64,000 nt of DNA. It comes from Opitutales bacterium. GTDB lineage: Bacteria > Verrucomicrobiota > Verrucomicrobiia > Opitutales > JABSRG01. The translations under genes and the position numbers were made by a program. Location of the stretch: NCBI GenBank assembly GCA_049599475.1, contig JBMYOQ010000007.1, positions 1-64,000 on the forward strand. The letters are read 5' to 3'. The notes under the pieces are model-generated. The model saw only the letters and a list, made by a program, of their open reading frames with translations. It was not told the DNA's origin and searched no databases. Positions 4,277 to 49,737 of this stretch are shown piece by piece (position 1 is the stretch's first letter; every line of letters begins with the position of its first letter).

Positions 4277-4789
4277 ATGAATTCTTCCCACGCACTTCTT
4301 GTAAAAGCCAACCGTATGTTGGGGTCGCAGCTTGTGGAGTTGAACCTCATCACCTACGAAGCTCTTGAGAATGCCAACGAGAAATTCCTCGATGCCCTGC
4401 ACGCAAGTGATTCAAAGAACGCGAGTTTACTCCGAATCTTGCTTGCTGAAACTCAAGAACTGAAAGAGCAGGATTTGATCGAAGAACAGGTCGAAAACCA
4501 CGGGCTTTCTCCCTGCTCATTAGAACATATCGGGTTCAGTCCCAGTGATTGGGAACCGGAATTAGTGGACGCATGCTACGCCACGCGAACGATCCCTGTC
4601 GACAAGGTGGAAGAAGTCGTATTCCTGGCTTCTAGCTGTTACTTGAGTCGCCCAGTAAGGGAATTTTGGACCAAGCTTTATGGGGACACCATTGTTTGGC
4701 TGGTGGTACCCTTTGCGCAGATCGAAGAGCGCTTGCAAATGTTTGCTGAGGCACACGCGGATGAATCCACTGAAGCGGAGGCCAAGTAG
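4277..4789 (+). CDS. Stand-alone MshEN/GSPII_N-like domain protein
   Basis: RMLGSQLVELNLITYEALENA resembles the MshEN motif; TIPVDKVEEVVFLASS resembles the GSPII_N beta region; directly upstream of pilB; paralog at 11878. Confidence 0.55.
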   Translation: MNSSHALLVKANRMLGSQLVELNLITYEALENANEKFLDALHASDSKNASLLRILLAETQELKEQDLIEEQVENHGLSPCSLEHIGFSPSDWEPELVDACYATRTIPVDKVEEVVFLASSCYLSRPVREFWTKLYGDTIVWLVVPFAQIEERLQMFAEAHADESTEAEAK

Positions 4790-42273: not shown

Positions 42274-42289
42274 TGGCATGCAGCTCGCT
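42274..42289 (+). promoter_or_regulatory. Candidate sigma54 (-24/-12) promoter
   Basis: TGGCATGCAGCTCGCT: GG-N10-GC with TGGCA, ending 35 bp upstream of ATG 42325. Confidence 0.55.
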
Positions 42290-42324
42290 AATGGGAACCC
42301 ATCGGCGCCCCGATCAATTGCATC

Positions 42325-44276
42325 ATGGACTTTCAGAGCCAATTTCAAACGGAATTCAAAAACTTAGCACTCAGAGGCAGTAGCCTCGCAGAAGATCTAG
42401 AAGCAGGCCAGGCAGCAACTCCTTTTGGTGATGCATTCCGTCAGCTGAACGATGCCTCGGGCGGTCGGGTCGTAAAAGCTGTGGTTCTTGGCATGGATGC
42501 AGATGCGACAAACGCGGCGCTTTCATGCTTACTGGGTCAAGACTACAATCTGTGCAAAGTGTGCATGCCTTCGCGACTAGGATACAGCGAGATTTCCCTG
42601 CAAGAACGCGGTTTCTTGCTGGAGGATGGCGATCAAAAATTGGAGTTTGATGATGTAGAAGCATTCGCAAGTGCGATTCAGGAGTCCAATGGTCCCTCGG
42701 CTCAGGAGAGAGTCAATTGGATGGACCCTGTGCGTCTCAAAATGAAGGCGCCCGCTCATCTCAGCGGCCTTTGTCTTCTCGTCCCGGATAGTCTGGAGAG
42801 TATCGCGGAGAAGCCCGCATTGCTATCAACCTTAGCAGATCAGACGGACTGGGCCTTCATCGCGGGCTACCCTGATCGCGATTTTTCGGCAGACCAAGTG
42901 ACTCATGTTCAGTTGATTCTGGATCAAGTCGTAGGATTTCAAGGACTGTTGATTCCATCCATGGAAAGGGAATCCGGTGACTCAGTCGCATGGTGGAAGC
43001 GGTTTCGAGCAGGTTTATCCCTCGGGGCTGTGAATACCGAGTCTGATCTACTACCTCGGCGATTAGCGATGCTGACCCATCGTCAGAGTGAGCTACGCCA
43101 ATATATCTTGGAGTCACGGGGTGCAGGAGATTTCAAAACGCATCTGAGACTGCTTAAAGACACTCTCGACCAGCAAGAAAAACAGCTGGCGGGCAAGCGT
43201 CGTATTATCGAAGGAAATGCTGAGGACGGCGTACAAGAGCGAGGTAGCACGCGTAAACAGGGGGACCCCCTACGCAATCGCTTGAAGGAGGATTCCGAGA
43301 GTATCAAATCGGCTGTGGAACGGGATACGAAACGCGATTTATCCCCTGAAGGTGCTCTTCATCAGCCCCTCAAGCAAGCGGCAGATGCATTCTCCGAGGC
43401 GGATATCGAGCAGACCATAAGCGGCTCGAAGATTAAACTGGGAGTGAATGCTGAGACGCGCACTTCCTACGGCACTCTGCTCGCGCAACTAGCCACAAAG
43501 CAAATCGAGGAAGATCAGCAGCTCTTCCAGGAAGGCCTGACAAGCACTCGAGAGTCTGTGGAGACAGAGCTCGAAGCTATTACAGGATTTCGCACTCAAT
43601 TGAATCTAGAGCCCTTGGACATGCGTGAGCTCCGGGATTCGGTTGAGGCTCTGGCATCTCCGGAGATTCAATATCGCGGAGAGATGGATAGACCCACTTT
43701 GATGAAGCGTTTCCAATCTGCCCGAAGTGGTATTATGGGCTTGATGATGGTTGGTATGATTGGGACTGGCTTTGCGGCCCTAAGTGGAGACTCGGAAGCG
43801 GGTGGCGGTGATTTTCGTACAATGCTCTACGTGGCATGATTCCGTTCTTGGTGATAGGTTTTTTCTGGACCTACATTAGCTTCCGTAAAAAGGAGCAGGA
43901 GACCCTTCTGAAAGAAGTAGAAAAGCTACAAACGGGCGTACTTTCTGAATTGCGTCGATTGATGGCCGACATTTTGCGCCAGGCCCAGGGCCAAATTGTG
44001 CAGCACTACAGCAAACAGATTAAAGAAATGCAGAATCAGGTGAGCGCCTCGCTGGAGAGCTTCGAAGAACAGCGCCTCAAAGAGAGCACTGTGAAAAAGA
44101 AGAAGGCTCAGGAGCAAAAGCAGTCGGTCGAGAAGCGCTCGCGTCAACTCAAAGACTTTAAACGCGAGCTTGAGCGGTTGGCCCGTGAATCTGATGGGCT
44201 GGATACGCTTCAACTCAAATGGCTCCAGGACTGGATAGGGCGATTTAATCAGGGAAAACTCCCTCCACTTCAATAG
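42325..44276 (+). pseudogene. Degenerate dynamin-like membrane protein, split by an apparent 1-nt deletion near 43833 (ORFs 42325..43839 and 43836..44276)
   Basis: KAVVLGMDADATNAALSCLLG (G1-like), PAHLSGLCLLVPDSL (G3-like), helical stalk, TM hairpin, C-terminal coiled coil; adding one G at GTGGCATGATT restores MLYVGMIPFLVIGFFWTY. Could instead be two coupled genes or a sequencing error. Confidence 0.5.
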
Positions 44277-44347
44277 GTCCGAGCTGAGCCTGGGCCTACG
44301 CTCGGCGTCCTCAAATTTAAACAACTTACTTCAACCTTATCTAAATC

Positions 44348-46165
44348 ATGGCAAAGCAAAACGAGACAGATTCGACCACGGAACAGGCGAAACAAGCTGC
44401 CTCTGCGGCGAGCGAACAGGCCCAAGCATCCGCCCAAGATGCTAACCTGGCCGCACAGGAAGCTGCTGGATTTAGTGACTTAGCTTCCCAGAGTGCTTCT
44501 ACCGCGGATAGCCTAATGCGGCAAGCCGGCGAAGCGGCATCGTCGGCCGAGACGCAGGCTTTCGAGAGTCGGCAATCCGCCGAGACTGCTCAGCAGGCTT
44601 CTGCAGATGCGATGGACGATGCTGCTGCGAGTGCTTCTAGCGCCCAGGATGCTGCCTTCAAAGCAGGTGCTGCCGAAACTTCAGCGGCGCAGTCCAGTGA
44701 CAGTGCCGACCTCGCAGCTAGCCGAGCTACAGATGCAGGGCAGAGTGCAGATGATTCACAGGCAGCTGCGACGGATGCCACACGATCTGCCCGCGATGCT
44801 GGCGATGCCGCTACAGATGCTCAATCCGAGGCGGAAACTGCCTCGGACTCCGCGACTAGCGCGGAAAACAGCGCAGACTTCGCCGCTCGACAAGCCTCCG
44901 ACGCTTACCGCGCCGCTGAATTCGCCGAAGATCAAGCCAGAGACTCTGCGGCCTATGCCAACTATGCGAGGGAGCAAGCCTACGATGCCGCCGAGTATGC
45001 AGACATTGCTGAACAGCAAGCCGCGGATGCTAAGGACTCTGCTGAGGAGGCATTTGATCAGGCCGAGGCGGCTACTGATTCTGCAGATGAGGCCGCTGAC
45101 CAAGCCACGATCGCTACAGATCAGGCAAAAGCAGCGACAACCCAAGCAGGAATCGCAGAGGAGCAAGCGAAGGCTGCTACCGACTCTGCAGAAGTCGCTG
45201 CAGATCAGGCGGACAAGGCTACAGAATCGGCCAAGGATGCTCATGAGCAGGCTGAATTAGCAGCGGATTCAGCGAGCGAAGCTGCAGACTCTGCAACGAT
45301 CGCATCGGACTACGCGGAAGCCGCCATGTCGTCCAGTGCTGAAGCTGCCGCATTTGCAAAAGATTCTGAAGACGCCAGTGTAGCCAGCCAAGCATCGGCT
45401 GCTGAGTCTGCTGAAGCGGCTAAACTTGCCAAGGAAGAGCTTGCCGATGCAGTAGAAGCGAGTGAGCTGACCGATGAAGAATTAAAGGAAGCCACTGAAG
45501 CGTCGGATCGCGCTCAGGAGGAAATGCGCGAGGCCTCTGATGCTTCCGATGATGCCCAAGCAGAGGCCAAAGAGGCTGCAGAAGCCTCCGATGATGCTCG
45601 CGTGGAAGCTCAAGATGCTGCGGATGCCGCAACGCGTGCTGAATCTGAAGCCAATCAAGCCTCTGCAAGTGCGACTGCGGCAGATGGCTCAGAGGCTTCT
45701 GCCGCCAGCTCTGCCTCTCAGGCCGCGAGTTCAGCCGCGCAGGCTCGGGCCCAGTCAGCCGAGGCGGATAGCGCAGCCAAGATGGCGGAAAGCTATGAGA
45801 AAATGGCCAGCAGTGCATCGAGTACTGCAGAGGACTTTTCCGATGATGCACGCGGATTTGCTGATGTAGCACGACAAGAATACCAGAAAGCCGCGGGTCA
45901 CGCCAGCGACGCCTATGATGAGCTGAAGGATTTGCGCGACCTCAAGCTCGAGGCCGAAGACATTATCGATTTCCTCAAATCTGCGAAGGCCTCTGCTGAG
46001 ACTATGATCAACGAAATCGGCGATTTCCATACACGCGCTGAGGAGGCTGCTCTGAAAGCGGAAGCTGCTGCCGAGCGCGCAGAGCAAGCCGCGAGCACCG
46101 CTGGCGAACATGCCAATGCAGCCGACCGTTGGGCAGACATCGCCAAAGATCAAGCCATGGGCTAG
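44348..46165 (+). CDS. Acidic Ala-rich heptad-repeat (alanine-zipper) coiled-coil protein
   Basis: 605 aa; unbroken AxxAxxx register from about residue 22 to the end; no Pro or Cys; no signal peptide or TM. Confidence 0.8.
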   Translation: MAKQNETDSTTEQAKQAASAASEQAQASAQDANLAAQEAAGFSDLASQSASTADSLMRQAGEAASSAETQAFESRQSAETAQQASADAMDDAAASASSAQDAAFKAGAAETSAAQSSDSADLAASRATDAGQSADDSQAAATDATRSARDAGDAATDAQSEAETASDSATSAENSADFAARQASDAYRAAEFAEDQARDSAAYANYAREQAYDAAEYADIAEQQAADAKDSAEEAFDQAEAATDSADEAADQATIATDQAKAATTQAGIAEEQAKAATDSAEVAADQADKATESAKDAHEQAELAADSASEAADSATIASDYAEAAMSSSAEAAAFAKDSEDASVASQASAAESAEAAKLAKEELADAVEASELTDEELKEATEASDRAQEEMREASDASDDAQAEAKEAAEASDDARVEAQDAADAATRAESEANQASASATAADGSEASAASSASQAASSAAQARAQSAEADSAAKMAESYEKMASSASSTAEDFSDDARGFADVARQEYQKAAGHASDAYDELKDLRDLKLEAEDIIDFLKSAKASAETMINEIGDFHTRAEEAALKAEAAAERAEQAASTAGEHANAADRWADIAKDQAMG

Positions 46166-46192
46166 GCCAGGTAGACTGACACACTCTCACAC

Positions 46193-46501
46193 ATGACACC
46201 CGAAGAAGCATATAGAATTTTAGGCCTCGATCCCTCTGCTACGGAAGCTGAGCGGACCTCGAAAATGAAGGAGCAGCGCGAAGCTCTGGAAGCGAAACTC
46301 GCGCGCGCCCCCACGGCAGGTCTCAAGGAAAAATACCGCAAACATCTTCAGCAATTAGAAACGGCTGCAGAGGTCTTGGAGTCGAGCGAAGATGGATCGT
46401 CTTTACCGACCTTGGCCCCGGAGGCGCCAATTGAGCCACCGAAAGAGGTGGTGCGCAAAGCGCTTGCTCTTGGAAGCGCGTGCTCAAGCGCAGCGAGATA
46501 A
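46193..46501 (+). CDS. J-domain-like protein lacking HPD (probably the N-terminal part of a disrupted fusion with the ankyrin ORF)
   Basis: MTPEEAYRILGLDPSATEAE...LQQLETAAEVL, then a Pro-rich linker. Confidence 0.55.
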   Translation: MTPEEAYRILGLDPSATEAERTSKMKEQREALEAKLARAPTAGLKEKYRKHLQQLETAAEVLESSEDGSSLPTLAPEAPIEPPKEVVRKALALGSACSSAAR

Positions 46502-48059
46502 GCCCAATGTTGAGCGCTGGAAGGCGGAGGTCGCCAAGGAGAATTCTGGAGCTCTTTACGGAGCAGCGGATAAGGGAAATCTCAATGAAGTTCGCGGATT
46601 ACTTCTTGTAGGGGCGAATCCGGATGGAGGTAAATATTCAAAACCTCTTTCGGTGGCCCTACGTAGAGGGCACAATGATATCGCTACATTGCTGCTCAAG
46701 CGTGGGGCTAATCCGACGGATACGTATCCGTGGAGCAGTTTGAGCTCGGGGCGTCCATCTATCGATATGGTGAACGCGCTGCTCGACTCGGGGGCAAATC
46801 CGAATGAGGGCAACGTATTGAATGTGTATCGGACCATTCAAAAGCGAAATGCTTCTGAAGCGCTTAAGGTATTTGATGCGATGCGTGAGGTCGGAGGCAA
46901 TGGCTTCGATGAGGCTTGGTTTGGAAAGCTTATGGTCTTGGCGATGAACACCCGTGATAGAAAACTCATCGATTGGTTGGATGGGGTAGGTGTTACTTTA
47001 AAAGATCCTATGCGTGATTTTTGGGCGCATGAAACAGATGGAGTGTCTACCTTGGCATGGGCTGCTCAGGGGGGCGAATTGGAGTTTTTCAACTATGTGA
47101 AAGAAGCCACCGGAGGCACGCTGATGGAAGGCGAGCGCGCGGGGCAGGAGATCCGTTATGCCATGGCCGGAGGGAATTGGAACATCTACCAATATTTCCT
47201 GGAGCTTGGGCAAGATCCTATGAAATGGGATGACCAATACGTGAAAGATTTTTTCAACAGCGAAACGGGCGGTGGGCTCTGGGAGCTGTATATGGAGAGG
47301 AGCCATGTCGGAGAGCTGGCCGGACCGGTAGGCTTGGCAGTGCTCGGGGGCAATTTGGATATCCTGAAAGATATCCTGGAGCGCGGTGGGGATATTAATG
47401 AATTTTCTTCGTTAGCGTGGCAGGGGCCCGCGGGAAGCATGAATCTTTACCGTCCTTTAGCGGGAGCCTTGGGCGCTATTTGGGGGCCATCCACGGGAGG
47501 CCGGCGCGGGAAACTTTACCATAGGGAAATTGCGGTCTATTTGCTCGATCAAGGGGCCACACCGTTTGTCGATACCGTTACCGGACGCGGAAATCCCTAT
47601 CGCATGGTAACTGAATTTCTGGGAGCAGTTCGCCTGAAGGATCGAGAGCTCGTTAAGCGATTTTTAGATCTTGGTGCCGATCCCCTGTGGGTAGGAGAGC
47701 ATATAGATGAGTCCTCGCATACACCTTATCGGAACGCTGAGCGCTTGGAGCTAAACTGGGCAGTGGACATGATGCGCCCCAAGGTAGAAACTCCCGAATA
47801 CCTCAAGATCGTAGACAATTTTCGAAAAATCGAAGCCGCGCGCGTGGCTTATTTCAAGAAACATCCTAAAAAATGGCAGGGTATCAATTTTGAGGATCTG
47901 TCGAAGGAACCCGAAGGTGCCGAACTAGCAAAAATGGAATCAGTCTTGGGAGAGAATTACGCCAAACGCTTTTCTTATTTGGGCAAGAGCGAACCTTGGG
48001 GGTACGACATTTACGATAAGACTGGCCGGTTTTATTCCATTCCCTTGAGCGAGCTCTGA
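46392..48059 (+). CDS. Ankyrin repeat protein
   Basis: ALYGAADKGNLNEVRGLLLVGANPD, PLSVALRRGHNDIATLLLKRGANP, LAVLGGNLDILKDILERGGDIN; start uncertain. Confidence 0.8.
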   Translation: MDRLYRPWPRRRQLSHRKRWCAKRLLLEARAQAQRDKPNVERWKAEVAKENSGALYGAADKGNLNEVRGLLLVGANPDGGKYSKPLSVALRRGHNDIATLLLKRGANPTDTYPWSSLSSGRPSIDMVNALLDSGANPNEGNVLNVYRTIQKRNASEALKVFDAMREVGGNGFDEAWFGKLMVLAMNTRDRKLIDWLDGVGVTLKDPMRDFWAHETDGVSTLAWAAQGGELEFFNYVKEATGGTLMEGERAGQEIRYAMAGGNWNIYQYFLELGQDPMKWDDQYVKDFFNSETGGGLWELYMERSHVGELAGPVGLAVLGGNLDILKDILERGGDINEFSSLAWQGPAGSMNLYRPLAGALGAIWGPSTGGRRGKLYHREIAVYLLDQGATPFVDTVTGRGNPYRMVTEFLGAVRLKDRELVKRFLDLGADPLWVGEHIDESSHTPYRNAERLELNWAVDMMRPKVETPEYLKIVDNFRKIEAARVAYFKKHPKKWQGINFEDLSKEPEGAELAKMESVLGENYAKRFSYLGKSEPWGYDIYDKTGRFYSIPLSEL

Positions 48060-48076
48060 TCGAAAGAAAGTGAGTT

Positions 48077-48178
48077 CTTTACGGTTTCTCAAAAAGGGTT
48101 CTCGTTTGTTCTGGTAAATCCACTCTTTCGAAAGGGAGGAGTGGCAGGCCGAAAATAGTTTTTGAGCAAGGGGCTAAA
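48077..48178. mobile_element. MITE-like element (copy 3)
   Basis: TTTCTCAAAAA...TTTTTGAGCAA ends; interior GGTAAATCCACTCTTTCGAA resembles the reverse complement of copy 2. Confidence 0.55.
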
Positions 48179-48225
48179 GAGGGTAGGCCTTCGTCGCCTG
48201 TACCCAAGCCTTTGTATTTAGTTTT

Positions 48226-49737
48226 TCAGTACTTTAATTTCAGCGCCTGAAGCTGGCTATATGCATCTGAAAGGTCGGCTGAGCCGTTCTGAGAGAACTG
48301 ACGCTCGACAGAAGCGCCGGTCTTTCCGTCTCGGGCGTGAACGGTGACCCTTCCGGTATCGTCGTACCCCATTTTTATCTCTACCGGGTAGTTTATCTCT
48401 GGGGAGCGTATTGGGCCGAAGCTAAATTTCCCAAGTGACTCAGGAGATGAGAAAGGGTCCTTTCGCTGAAGGATTTCTAACGAAAGTGTATCTTGCGTGC
48501 CATCTTGAGTGTAGACCGTGGTAGAACAATCCGTAGGCACCGGAACGTTCTTTTCGATCATTGGGTGGAAAATCGGTTTATTCTGTTTCCGATCGAAAAT
48601 GCGAATTCCCAGCTCATTCGAAGTCACCATCTGCTTGAGGGGAGGGGCGGCGGTCTTCTTTTGTCCGTGTAATTGCTCGGCGAGAAGTGCTGCGCCGTAG
48701 GCCACGGAAGCGTGGGGCTGAACACGCTTTATCCGGTCAGCAGACAATCCCGACATTGTGCGTGCAGCACGTTCCACACAGGGGACGAGGCTGGAGCCCC
48801 CGGTCAGAACAAGTTCGTCGATATCACTCCAGGTGAGTTGCTGGTGCTCCAGGGCGCGCTCGCAGACTTCTTGGCAGGCCTCCAACCAAGGTTCCGCAGC
48901 GGCTTCGAATTGTTTTCGGGTAAATGTAACCTTGAGCGAGCGGCCTCCTAGGATAAGTGCCTGGCTTATGATTTCCGTGCTGGGGTCGGATAATTGTATC
49001 TTGGCATCCGTGGCAAACATTCGCAGGCGTTGCATCGCTTCTGTGTCCGAGCGAATGTCGCTACGAAATTGTCCCTGATACTGCTCTGCGACGATATCAA
49101 TGATGACTTCGTCAAAATTTTTCCCGCCAATGTTATCCGACCCCTCGGTGGCAATTGCGTAAAGGCCATCCGGGGTTGCCGAAAGAATCGTGGCATCGAA
49201 TGTCCCGCCGCCGATGTCGAAAACGAAGATCAAACGCTCGTCGTTTGAGGAATTTAAGCCGAAATAGGTAGCGGCGGCCAGGGGCTCTTCGACGAGACCT
49301 AAGACGGGAATGTCGGCGAGCCGTCCGGCGTTCACAGTGGCCAGGCGCTGTGCTTCATTGAAATGAGCCGGGACAGTAATCACTGCTCCGGTCATGGACT
49401 CATTGCATGCCGCCTCGGCGTCTTCCTTCAGTTTTTTGAGGATCAAGGCAGATATTGCCTCAGGCGTATATGTGCGTCCCGAAGAGTCGGTAAAGGCAGG
49501 AGGGCCGTCTTCCCCCATGCTCAGTTTTGCAAATCTGCATATAGGGAGCAATGAATCCTCCTCGAGAATATTCTCAACGAGATCTCCAACGACGCATGTT
49601 CCGTCTGCTATGTGAACGACGGATGGGGTCTGGAAGCGTTTAGCGTCCTCTTTGCTGGGGCACAAAGTAGGCGTGCCGGAAGCATTAATGTAGCTGACGA
49701 GCGAAAAGGTGGTTCCGAGATCAATTCCTACAAGCAT
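48226..49737 (-). CDS. Hsp70-family protein (short, not canonical DnaK)
   Basis: GIDLGTTFS, AVITVPAHF, EEPLAAA, VFDIGGGTFD, LVLTGGSSLVP; 503 aa, lacking the helical lid. Confidence 0.9.
   Translation of the reverse strand: MLVGIDLGTTFSLVSYINASGTPTLCPSKEDAKRFQTPSVVHIADGTCVVGDLVENILEEDSLLPICRFAKLSMGEDGPPAFTDSSGRTYTPEAISALILKKLKEDAEAACNESMTGAVITVPAHFNEAQRLATVNAGRLADIPVLGLVEEPLAAATYFGLNSSNDERLIFVFDIGGGTFDATILSATPDGLYAIATEGSDNIGGKNFDEVIIDIVAEQYQGQFRSDIRSDTEAMQRLRMFATDAKIQLSDPSTEIISQALILGGRSLKVTFTRKQFEAAAEPWLEACQEVCERALEHQQLTWSDIDELVLTGGSSLVPCVERAARTMSGLSADRIKRVQPHASVAYGAALLAEQLHGQKKTAAPPLKQMVTSNELGIRIFDRKQNKPIFHPMIEKNVPVPTDCSTTVYTQDGTQDTLSLEILQRKDPFSSPESLGKFSFGPIRSPEINYPVEIKMGYDDTGRVTVHARDGKTGASVERQFSQNGSADLSDAYSQLQALKLKY

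Follow-up and report, generated by a model that had tools for sequence, protein, structure and literature searches.

The question raised by positions 42,274 to 49,737 of the stretch analyzed here is whether four closely spaced genes, coding for a dynamin-like protein, an alanine-rich rod, a J-like/ankyrin protein and an Hsp70, constitute a single system and, if so, what such a system could do. The whole stretch, referred to as the window, comprises 64,000 nucleotides of contig JBMYOQ010000007.1 from an Opitutales bacterium, and a preliminary description made from its letters had proposed a dedicated chaperone-coupled membrane-remodeling, filament-forming or defense system at this place. Comparison with relatives establishes that the four genes are a real, conserved but rare bacterial module. 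No description of the four-part module was found in a full-text literature search that excluded supplements (the source-data tables of PMC7159879 and a classification of diversity-generating retroelement targets could list loci), and the module is apparently undescribed so far. The preliminary description was correct on the genes, their order and strands, and the spacings of 71 and 27 bp; in the window the parts are laid out as follows (aa, amino acids; ORF, open reading frame).

42274..42289, plus strand: sigma54-like −24/−12 site with 2 mismatches; doubtful, without conservation in relatives.
42325..43839, plus strand: P0001, GTPase-dead dynamin-like protein, N-terminal part, with the neck helix, pseudo-G domain, trunk and first paddle helix; 504 aa.
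43836..44276, plus strand: P0002, C-terminal part of the same dynamin gene, with the remaining paddle and the returning trunk/neck helix; 146 aa.
44348..46165, plus strand: P0003, acidic Ala/Ser-zipper heptad rod with a 14-residue repeat; 605 aa.
46193..46501, plus strand: P0004, J-like head without HPD, the N-terminus of a receptor gene, going out of frame before any membrane helix.
46392..48059, plus strand: P0005, ankyrin-repeat ORF, belonging to the same broken receptor gene as its variable outer tip.
48226..49737, minus strand: P0006, dedicated lid-less Hsp70 with intact ATPase motifs and changed J-docking residues and linker; 503 aa.

The converging ends of the ankyrin ORF and the Hsp70 gene are 166 bp apart. 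Among the module proteins of the window, Pfam recognizes only the ankyrin repeats and the Hsp70. Each module part is single-copy in the genome, which encodes an ordinary DnaK elsewhere.

Co-location of the four genes in other genomes, on which the proposal had been made to depend, was borne out by a neighborhood comparison, and the membership is kept across loci. Twenty-nine relative loci carry the dynamin gene, 18 of which end too soon to be judged. At all 11 loci where 8 kb or more of DNA lies downstream, both the J-like gene and the rod stand beside the dynamin gene; ten of the rods were found by script and the one at locus L018, which is cut by the contig end, by eye. The same lid-less Hsp70 is present at nine of the 11, and at L009 the flank ends in the fourth receptor gene of the locus. 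As the relative loci are kin, no statistic is claimed for the co-location. The gene order is rearranged between lineages: the Opitutales mostly have the order of the window, with a converging Hsp70 gene, and the Akkermansiaceae have Hsp70, receptor, dynamin and rod, all in one direction. In the reverse search, a profile of the J-like head gave five matches over 400 other genomes of the order; the four genomes with strong matches all carry the dynamin and the lid-less Hsp70, and the one with a weak match carries neither. Outside the Verrucomicrobiota, the Hsp70 and dynamin matches come with the same longest-contig sizes (45129, 8339 and 101274 bases), which is only a hint of co-location.

The first protein clearly has a dynamin fold, without which the proposal could not have stood. 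The AlphaFold model of the intact relative P0007 (pLDDT 82, pTM 0.54) matches dynamin-class structures both by Foldseek, with the BDLP (2j69, E 1.8e-12), IniA (6j72, E 2.7e-12) and the Campylobacter pair spanning E 1.8e-12 to 5.6e-12, and by structural alignment, where the best matches are mitofusins (Z 17.5, rmsd 10.5, 339 aligned residues). The architecture of the model is that of the BDLP/IniA/mitofusin class of the dynamin superfamily, a G-domain fold followed by neck, trunk and two-helix paddle, and the Atlas agrees with the dynamin assignment. When a profile of 55 family members was compared with the PDB sequences, IniA was the sole significant match (E 3e-6), located at the C-terminal helix. 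The hydrophobic hairpin is present, although it passes the threshold for a membrane helix only in P0065 and not in P0007 or P0001/P0002.

The fold evidently comes without the GTP-binding motifs, and the degenerate P-loop noticed in the window is a property of the family. In an alignment of 150 members, consisting of P0001 and those 149 of 171 fetched relatives that measure 560–770 aa, GxxxxGK[ST] is found at the G1 position in none, and the G1, G3 and G4 motifs (Walker A, D[TSL]PG and [NT]KxD) are each absent from their expected places in all 150, a single loose DxxG in P0120 being seen. The conservation has instead shifted to an ExGQAxTP-like motif preceding the G domain (94/150) and a YRGE-like motif ahead of the paddle (121/150). 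None of 70 dynamin relatives has a match to the Pfam family Dynamin_N or to any other informative Pfam family. A full-length active dynamin partner with a Dynamin_N domain was likewise found in none of five genomes searched, which gave only P-loop matches of 33–36 residues.

The dynamin-like family comprises 471 clusters at 50% identity and E 0.001, of which the best 150 were inspected. Named homologues occur in Opitutales, Akkermansiaceae and the marine Gammaproteobacteria Simiduia and Microbulbifer. The occurrence is patchy, with the dynamin in 0 of 6 genomes of the same family and 1 of 300 other genomes of the phylum; in genome contigs a single-protein query found nothing, and an alignment query found matches. 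No match was obtained in plasmids with P0065, in viral contigs with P0313, or in the Escherichia coli K-12 chromosome.

The second part was described beforehand as an alanine coiled coil of roughly 83 heptads, and the 605-aa rod with a dominant period of 3.5 fits about 84. The power of this period is 17.3, compared with 1.9 in the best shuffle, and two heptad columns are Ala or Ser in 61 and 66 of 67 positions; no hydrophobic leader or membrane helix is seen in the window rod. All 13 rods examined share the dominant period of 3.5, a 14-residue repeat and 30–37% Ala, with lengths of 358–605 aa, net charges of −26 to −91 and 1–4% Gly. The rod is predicted to be a long, acidic, cytoplasmic Ala/Ser zipper, which from the helix rise would measure roughly 50–90 nm.

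The third part required more revision. The J-like head and the ankyrin repeats of the proposed J-like/ankyrin protein are both present, although not as a single intact protein in the window, and the ankyrin repeats are not a core part, being one interchangeable tip among many. As judged from the predicted topology of the relatives, the J-like gene is normally that of a single-pass membrane receptor with an exchangeable outer tip, which the preliminary description had missed. A membrane helix starts at residue 104–130 in all 34 J-like-headed ORFs of at least 240 aa from module-bearing loci, a count from which heads cut by a contig end, two ORFs that begin mid-head and the weak match are excluded. 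The head and the helix are followed by a coiled coil, often by PEGA repeats, and by a variable tip of FGE-sulfatase/C-type lectin, Sel1, ankyrin, CXXCXGXG or TonB-C type, or one unassigned to a family; an intact gene for a J-like head, membrane helix and ankyrin tip is present in L010. There are one to five receptor genes per locus, often in tandem, with a maximum of five on a single contig (L051).

Two receptor genes of L018 enclose a reverse transcriptase (RVT_1, E 1.3e-16) and a template repeat, and their 3′ ends differ from the template at its adenines in 17 of 17 and 22 of 23 mismatches. The two receptor tips are thus targets of a diversity-generating retroelement, in L018 only. A second template-like stretch is found there at 4648–4776, where the reverse transcriptase gene ends. 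A reverse transcriptase also lies just upstream of the dynamin gene in L025, and no template repeat was found in L025 (4 kb) or L003. One of the retroelement-targeted receptor genes, L018:712-2555, has an in-frame stop inside the J-like head, so broken receptors occur in relatives too. A weaker J-like head followed by a membrane helix is encoded at L056:10374-8773 (G219), in a genome without the dead dynamin and the lid-less Hsp70, and the Atlas holds Verrucomicrobiota beta-helix proteins with a similar head; both suggest that membrane proteins with a J-like, HPD-less head may form a broader class.

Tips of this kind, among them the lectin-fold FGE, PEGA and TonB-C domains, could also belong to a cell-contact or surface-recognition machine, in which they would recognize kin, hosts, prey or substrates, the mitofusin-like protein and the rod would build tethers, tubes or fusion sites, and the Hsp70 would recycle the scaffold. 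The best structural matches are indeed to fusogenic mitofusins (Z 17.5), and the flanks are of housekeeping type. However, the ranking by Z favors truncated constructs and says nothing about function, IniA, which matches most closely in sequence (E 3e-6), is a fission protein, the occurrence is very patchy, and with receptors anchored in the inner membrane, contact with the outside would need a route that is not encoded here. Such a machine is considered unlikely.

The fourth part is, as had been claimed, a non-housekeeping and lid-less Hsp70, with the chain ending about 20 residues after the beta-sandwich. The window protein matches the Pfam HSP70 family (E 1.5e-84) and has an actin-fold ATPase domain and a beta-sandwich substrate domain, and the model (pLDDT 90.8) consists of these two domains and one short helix, with no lid. 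Across the module loci the protein is almost fixed at 501–506 aa, with 57–73% identity. The conservation was followed in 115 sequences, namely the 120 listed of 234 matches less five outside 490–540 aa; the neighbors of the more distant ones are unseen. Catalytic motifs are kept in all 115, with D8, T11, T12, P143, E171, D194, T199, D201 and P419 invariant, and the equivalent of K70, placed by eye, is invariant in 56 of 56. In contrast, R167 and Q378 (DnaK numbering), both kept in the DnaK of the same genome and in E. coli HscC, are kept in none of the 115. L392 is replaced by Gln in 113 of 115, D477 mostly by Gly, and N13 by Phe or Tyr. The window Hsp70 stays below the curated cut-offs (289 bits versus 822 for DnaK and 236 versus 708 for HscA) and is without the helical lid, hydrophobic linker and R167 that characterize DnaK, HscA and HscC. 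In a quick tree made without HscA, the lid-less proteins form a clade apart from DnaK and HscC (SH-aLRT 100, with a long-branch warning).

The residues lost on the Hsp70 have a counterpart on the receptor heads, none of which (0/23) has the HPD motif. In the available text of PMC8215388, R167 and Q378 of DnaK are given as the residues to which the aspartate of HPD bonds. The absence of HPD from the heads together with that of R167 and Q378 from the Hsp70 points to the J-like head and the lid-less Hsp70 being a private pair, and the dedicated chaperone coupling proposed earlier is at the level of sequence supported by this matched loss. Some of the same observations would suit a head that acts as an inhibitor or anchor, like the HPD-less J-like proteins Pam16/Tim16, and prevents the Hsp70 or the dead dynamin from acting before the tip has been engaged or cleaved. 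HPD is missing from 23 of 23 heads, and the invariant E33, A39, T41, K47, Y48 and R49 of the head define a different surface. Nevertheless, a re-keyed active contact would suit the matched changes on the docking face of the Hsp70 no less well, and an inhibitory head appears quite improbable.

A chaperone pair of this type could also serve quality control in the manner of HscC and DjlB/DjlC, where the Hsp70 and the J-like membrane proteins would do no more than fold, assemble or clear their clients, either the dynamin and rod or others of the membrane, and the tips would send no signal. In E. coli the hscC gene, too, converges on the genes of its two J proteins, with Sel1 genes lying in between, and specialized Hsp70s coevolve with their own J proteins, as the available part of PMC8215388 describes. 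HscC, however, keeps R167, Q378 and the lid, and quality control leaves the exchangeable, retroelement-mutated tips and the arrays of up to five receptors unexplained, so that it is judged a distinctly unlikely account of the module.

The reading preferred here, to which even chances are given, is a receptor-triggered, Hsp70-powered envelope surveillance or anti-invader module with a sporadic distribution. The head of the receptor would be cytoplasmic and the tip periplasmic, and a foreign or damage ligand at the tip would cause the receptors to cluster. The clustered J-like heads would then recruit and stimulate only the lid-less Hsp70, whose ATP-driven binding and release would switch how the dead dynamin and the rod are assembled on the inner membrane; as the outcome, the membrane at the sensed site would be sealed, bud or break down. 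As the preliminary description had suggested, the ATPase activity of the Hsp70 may replace the lost GTPase activity, its ATP cycle taking the place of the absent GTP cycle. An IniA deficient in hydrolysis still deforms membranes, and cutting needs hydrolysis (PMC6715688, available text), which fits a scaffold that depends on an outside energy source. Surveillance or defense is favored because the tips are hypervariable and the spread is patchy. Rather doubtfully, the module might represent a new kind of transmembrane signaling, in which hypervariable receptors and an orthogonal pair of HPD-free J-like protein and Hsp70 would use Hsp70 ATP hydrolysis to drive a GTPase-dead dynamin and a filament-forming rod. 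This would amount to a receptor-triggered membrane coat cycle, parallel to the uncoating by auxilin/Hsc70, that seals, sheds or engulfs membrane where an invader or partner is recognized.

Several observations weigh against a surveillance or anti-invader module. First, PADLOC gives no match for the window dynamin and only weak helical matches in two of six intact relatives scanned (LeoBC, E 3.5e-5 and 2.3e-4; LmuB, E 1.6e-6), and the tested two-gene dynamin defense system requires its P-loops, as stated in the available portion of 10.1101/2022.05.11.491447. Next, the J-fold of the head rests on weak scores, the best PDB profile matches being J-domains at E 0.0099–0.04, and since the loss of HPD normally abolishes the stimulation of Hsp70 (PMC8215388, available text), the head may bind without stimulating. 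In the Atlas the head scores 0.87 by features and has a structure TM of 0.75–0.79 to DnaJ clusters, below the Atlas naming bar. Finally, L017 is without an Hsp70 within 10 kb on both sides, the counted loci are all from one phylum with close kin included, and the flanks, which vary between lineages, are mostly housekeeping genes (pyruvate dehydrogenase, yidC/yebC) and not defense islands. The few defense-type flanks are a type I restriction subunit in L015 and PIN and Dam domains in L018.

Among the known systems, the iniBAC loci, to which the module had been likened, have a similar neck-trunk-paddle fold in IniA/IniC, of the BDLP/mitofusin class, and a low-complexity protein in the operon, but the comparison fails on the GTPase motifs and on the pairing. 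The module has one dead dynamin per locus and not two GTPase-domain genes, receptors and a dedicated Hsp70 are added, and the partner is an Ala-heptad rod with 1–4% Gly, whereas IniB is described as glycine-rich-protein-like. Eleos/LeoABC likewise has a dynamin-like membrane protein, with the weak LeoBC profile matches falling in the helical half of two relatives, and natural gene splitting occurs there too (10.1101/2022.05.11.491447, available text). However, Eleos is made up of a consecutive pair of dynamin-like proteins with required P-loops, which the module does not have, and Hsp70 is unmentioned in the available main text of the Eleos preprint (10.1101/2022.05.11.491447). In the cyanobacterial 'chaperone clade' a dynamin-like gene adjoins a DnaK-domain gene, yet these proteins are described as GTPases, and no dead G domain, rod or J-like receptors are mentioned in the available text of PMC5827413.

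The HSP70-GrpE theme of the GAP1-N2/DO-GTPase conflict systems combines a GTPase-fold core, HSP70 and a DnaJ-fused partner, and inactive enzymes and retroelement-diversified FGS domains occur in conflict systems. These differ in the GTPase family, in having GrpE and GAP1, and in being mostly from actinobacteria and firmicutes (all from the available portion of PMC7159879), and the module has instead a dead dynamin and HPD-less membrane receptors. General family scans gave no match to families of this type among the window module proteins; the neighbors in relatives were only partly scanned (21 genes). E. coli HscC with DjlB/DjlC is alike as a specialized Hsp70 converging on its own J-protein genes, but lies outside the lid-less clade and has no dynamin or rod. 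Auxilin/Hsc70 on clathrin and the chloroplast Hsp70 on VIPP1 are mechanistic precedents in which a J-directed Hsp70 alters how a membrane polymer is assembled (PMC4436892 and PMC12798727, available text), although both are eukaryotic with unrelated polymers, which makes this an analogy only. The module does not qualify as iniBAC, Eleos, DnaK/HscA/HscC or canonical J proteins, yet it would work like a blend of them.

The module defines a whole dynamin-fold family without GTP motifs that is invisible to Pfam, and an Hsp70 subfamily where the J-docking face is changed in step with the disappearance of HPD, an otherwise obligatory motif. Should the pair prove functional, it would be a naturally orthogonal chaperone switch that tests directly whether Hsp70 can be triggered only through HPD-R167, and if the receptors fire the Hsp70, the latter would be both signal transducer and motor for bacterial membrane remodeling. 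As the intact dynamin is found in named marine Gammaproteobacteria, experiments appear feasible.

The copy in the window is itself decaying, as its only detected receptor has lost both anchor and frame. The J-like head and the ankyrin ORF are in different frames, the head leaves its frame near 46470, and no frame at these genes encodes a membrane helix, unlike in all intact relatives. The dynamin gene forms two ORFs overlapping by ATGA, with the start of P0002 inside the stop of P0001, and is recognized as split because all 24 other matches to P0001 are single chains (638–687 aa) spanning both parts. The split lies inside the second hydrophobic paddle helix, and no residue is missing relative to the alignment. 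This break is bridged gap-free by one contig of another study, which covers 43573–43908 at a low depth of 2.67, and is identical letter for letter in a possible source run, so the split is probably real and not an assembly error; no RNA data set was listed as holding the sequence. The dynamin might, or might not, still be produced as a pair of coupled chains. Two breaks in one copy, an in-frame stop in the neighboring peptidase gene, and a receptor break bridged only by the run that is possibly the source might nonetheless be taken for assembly errors in an ordinary locus, or the whole for a chance cluster. With the four-part membership conserved, which already largely refutes chance, and the first break bridged independently, this is hardly credible. 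Recoding of stop codons was rejected as a cause, the breaks being frame changes and the in-frame ORF pairs that were examined, 70 out of 210, mostly ordinary gene junctions.

The sigma54-like promoter assigned to the module is present as a site at 42274, although not as a feature of the module. The site has two mismatches to the sigma54 consensus, and no site with at most two mismatches lies within 300 bp upstream in any of 19 relatives. With 390 such sites genome-wide as well, sigma54 control was rejected as a module feature. Scans for sigma70 promoters and terminators gave results at or below shuffle levels.

A few observations concern the surroundings. Three small genes between 35881 and 39839 of the window had no Pfam family above cut-off; this segment holds a TPR protein followed by small unannotated genes, of which one (252 aa) is flagellin-like by eye. 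In the gap between the ankyrin ORF and the Hsp70 gene, a stretch of 40–60 bases (48092–48156) has look-alikes on three or more further contigs of the same run and is possibly a dispersed repeat. The S9 peptidase gene adjoining the module (52188–50287, minus strand) has one in-frame TAG at about 51504, giving ORFs of 228 and 373 aa. Elsewhere in the same genome, two adjacent divergent Hsp70-like frames (610 and 946 aa) lie behind a small membrane-protein frame (G000:C132:895-5633) and are unrelated to the module. Upstream of the Hsp70-less module, L017:3125-7372 encodes a 1415-aa protein in which ImuB/IMS and DNA polymerase III alpha are fused.

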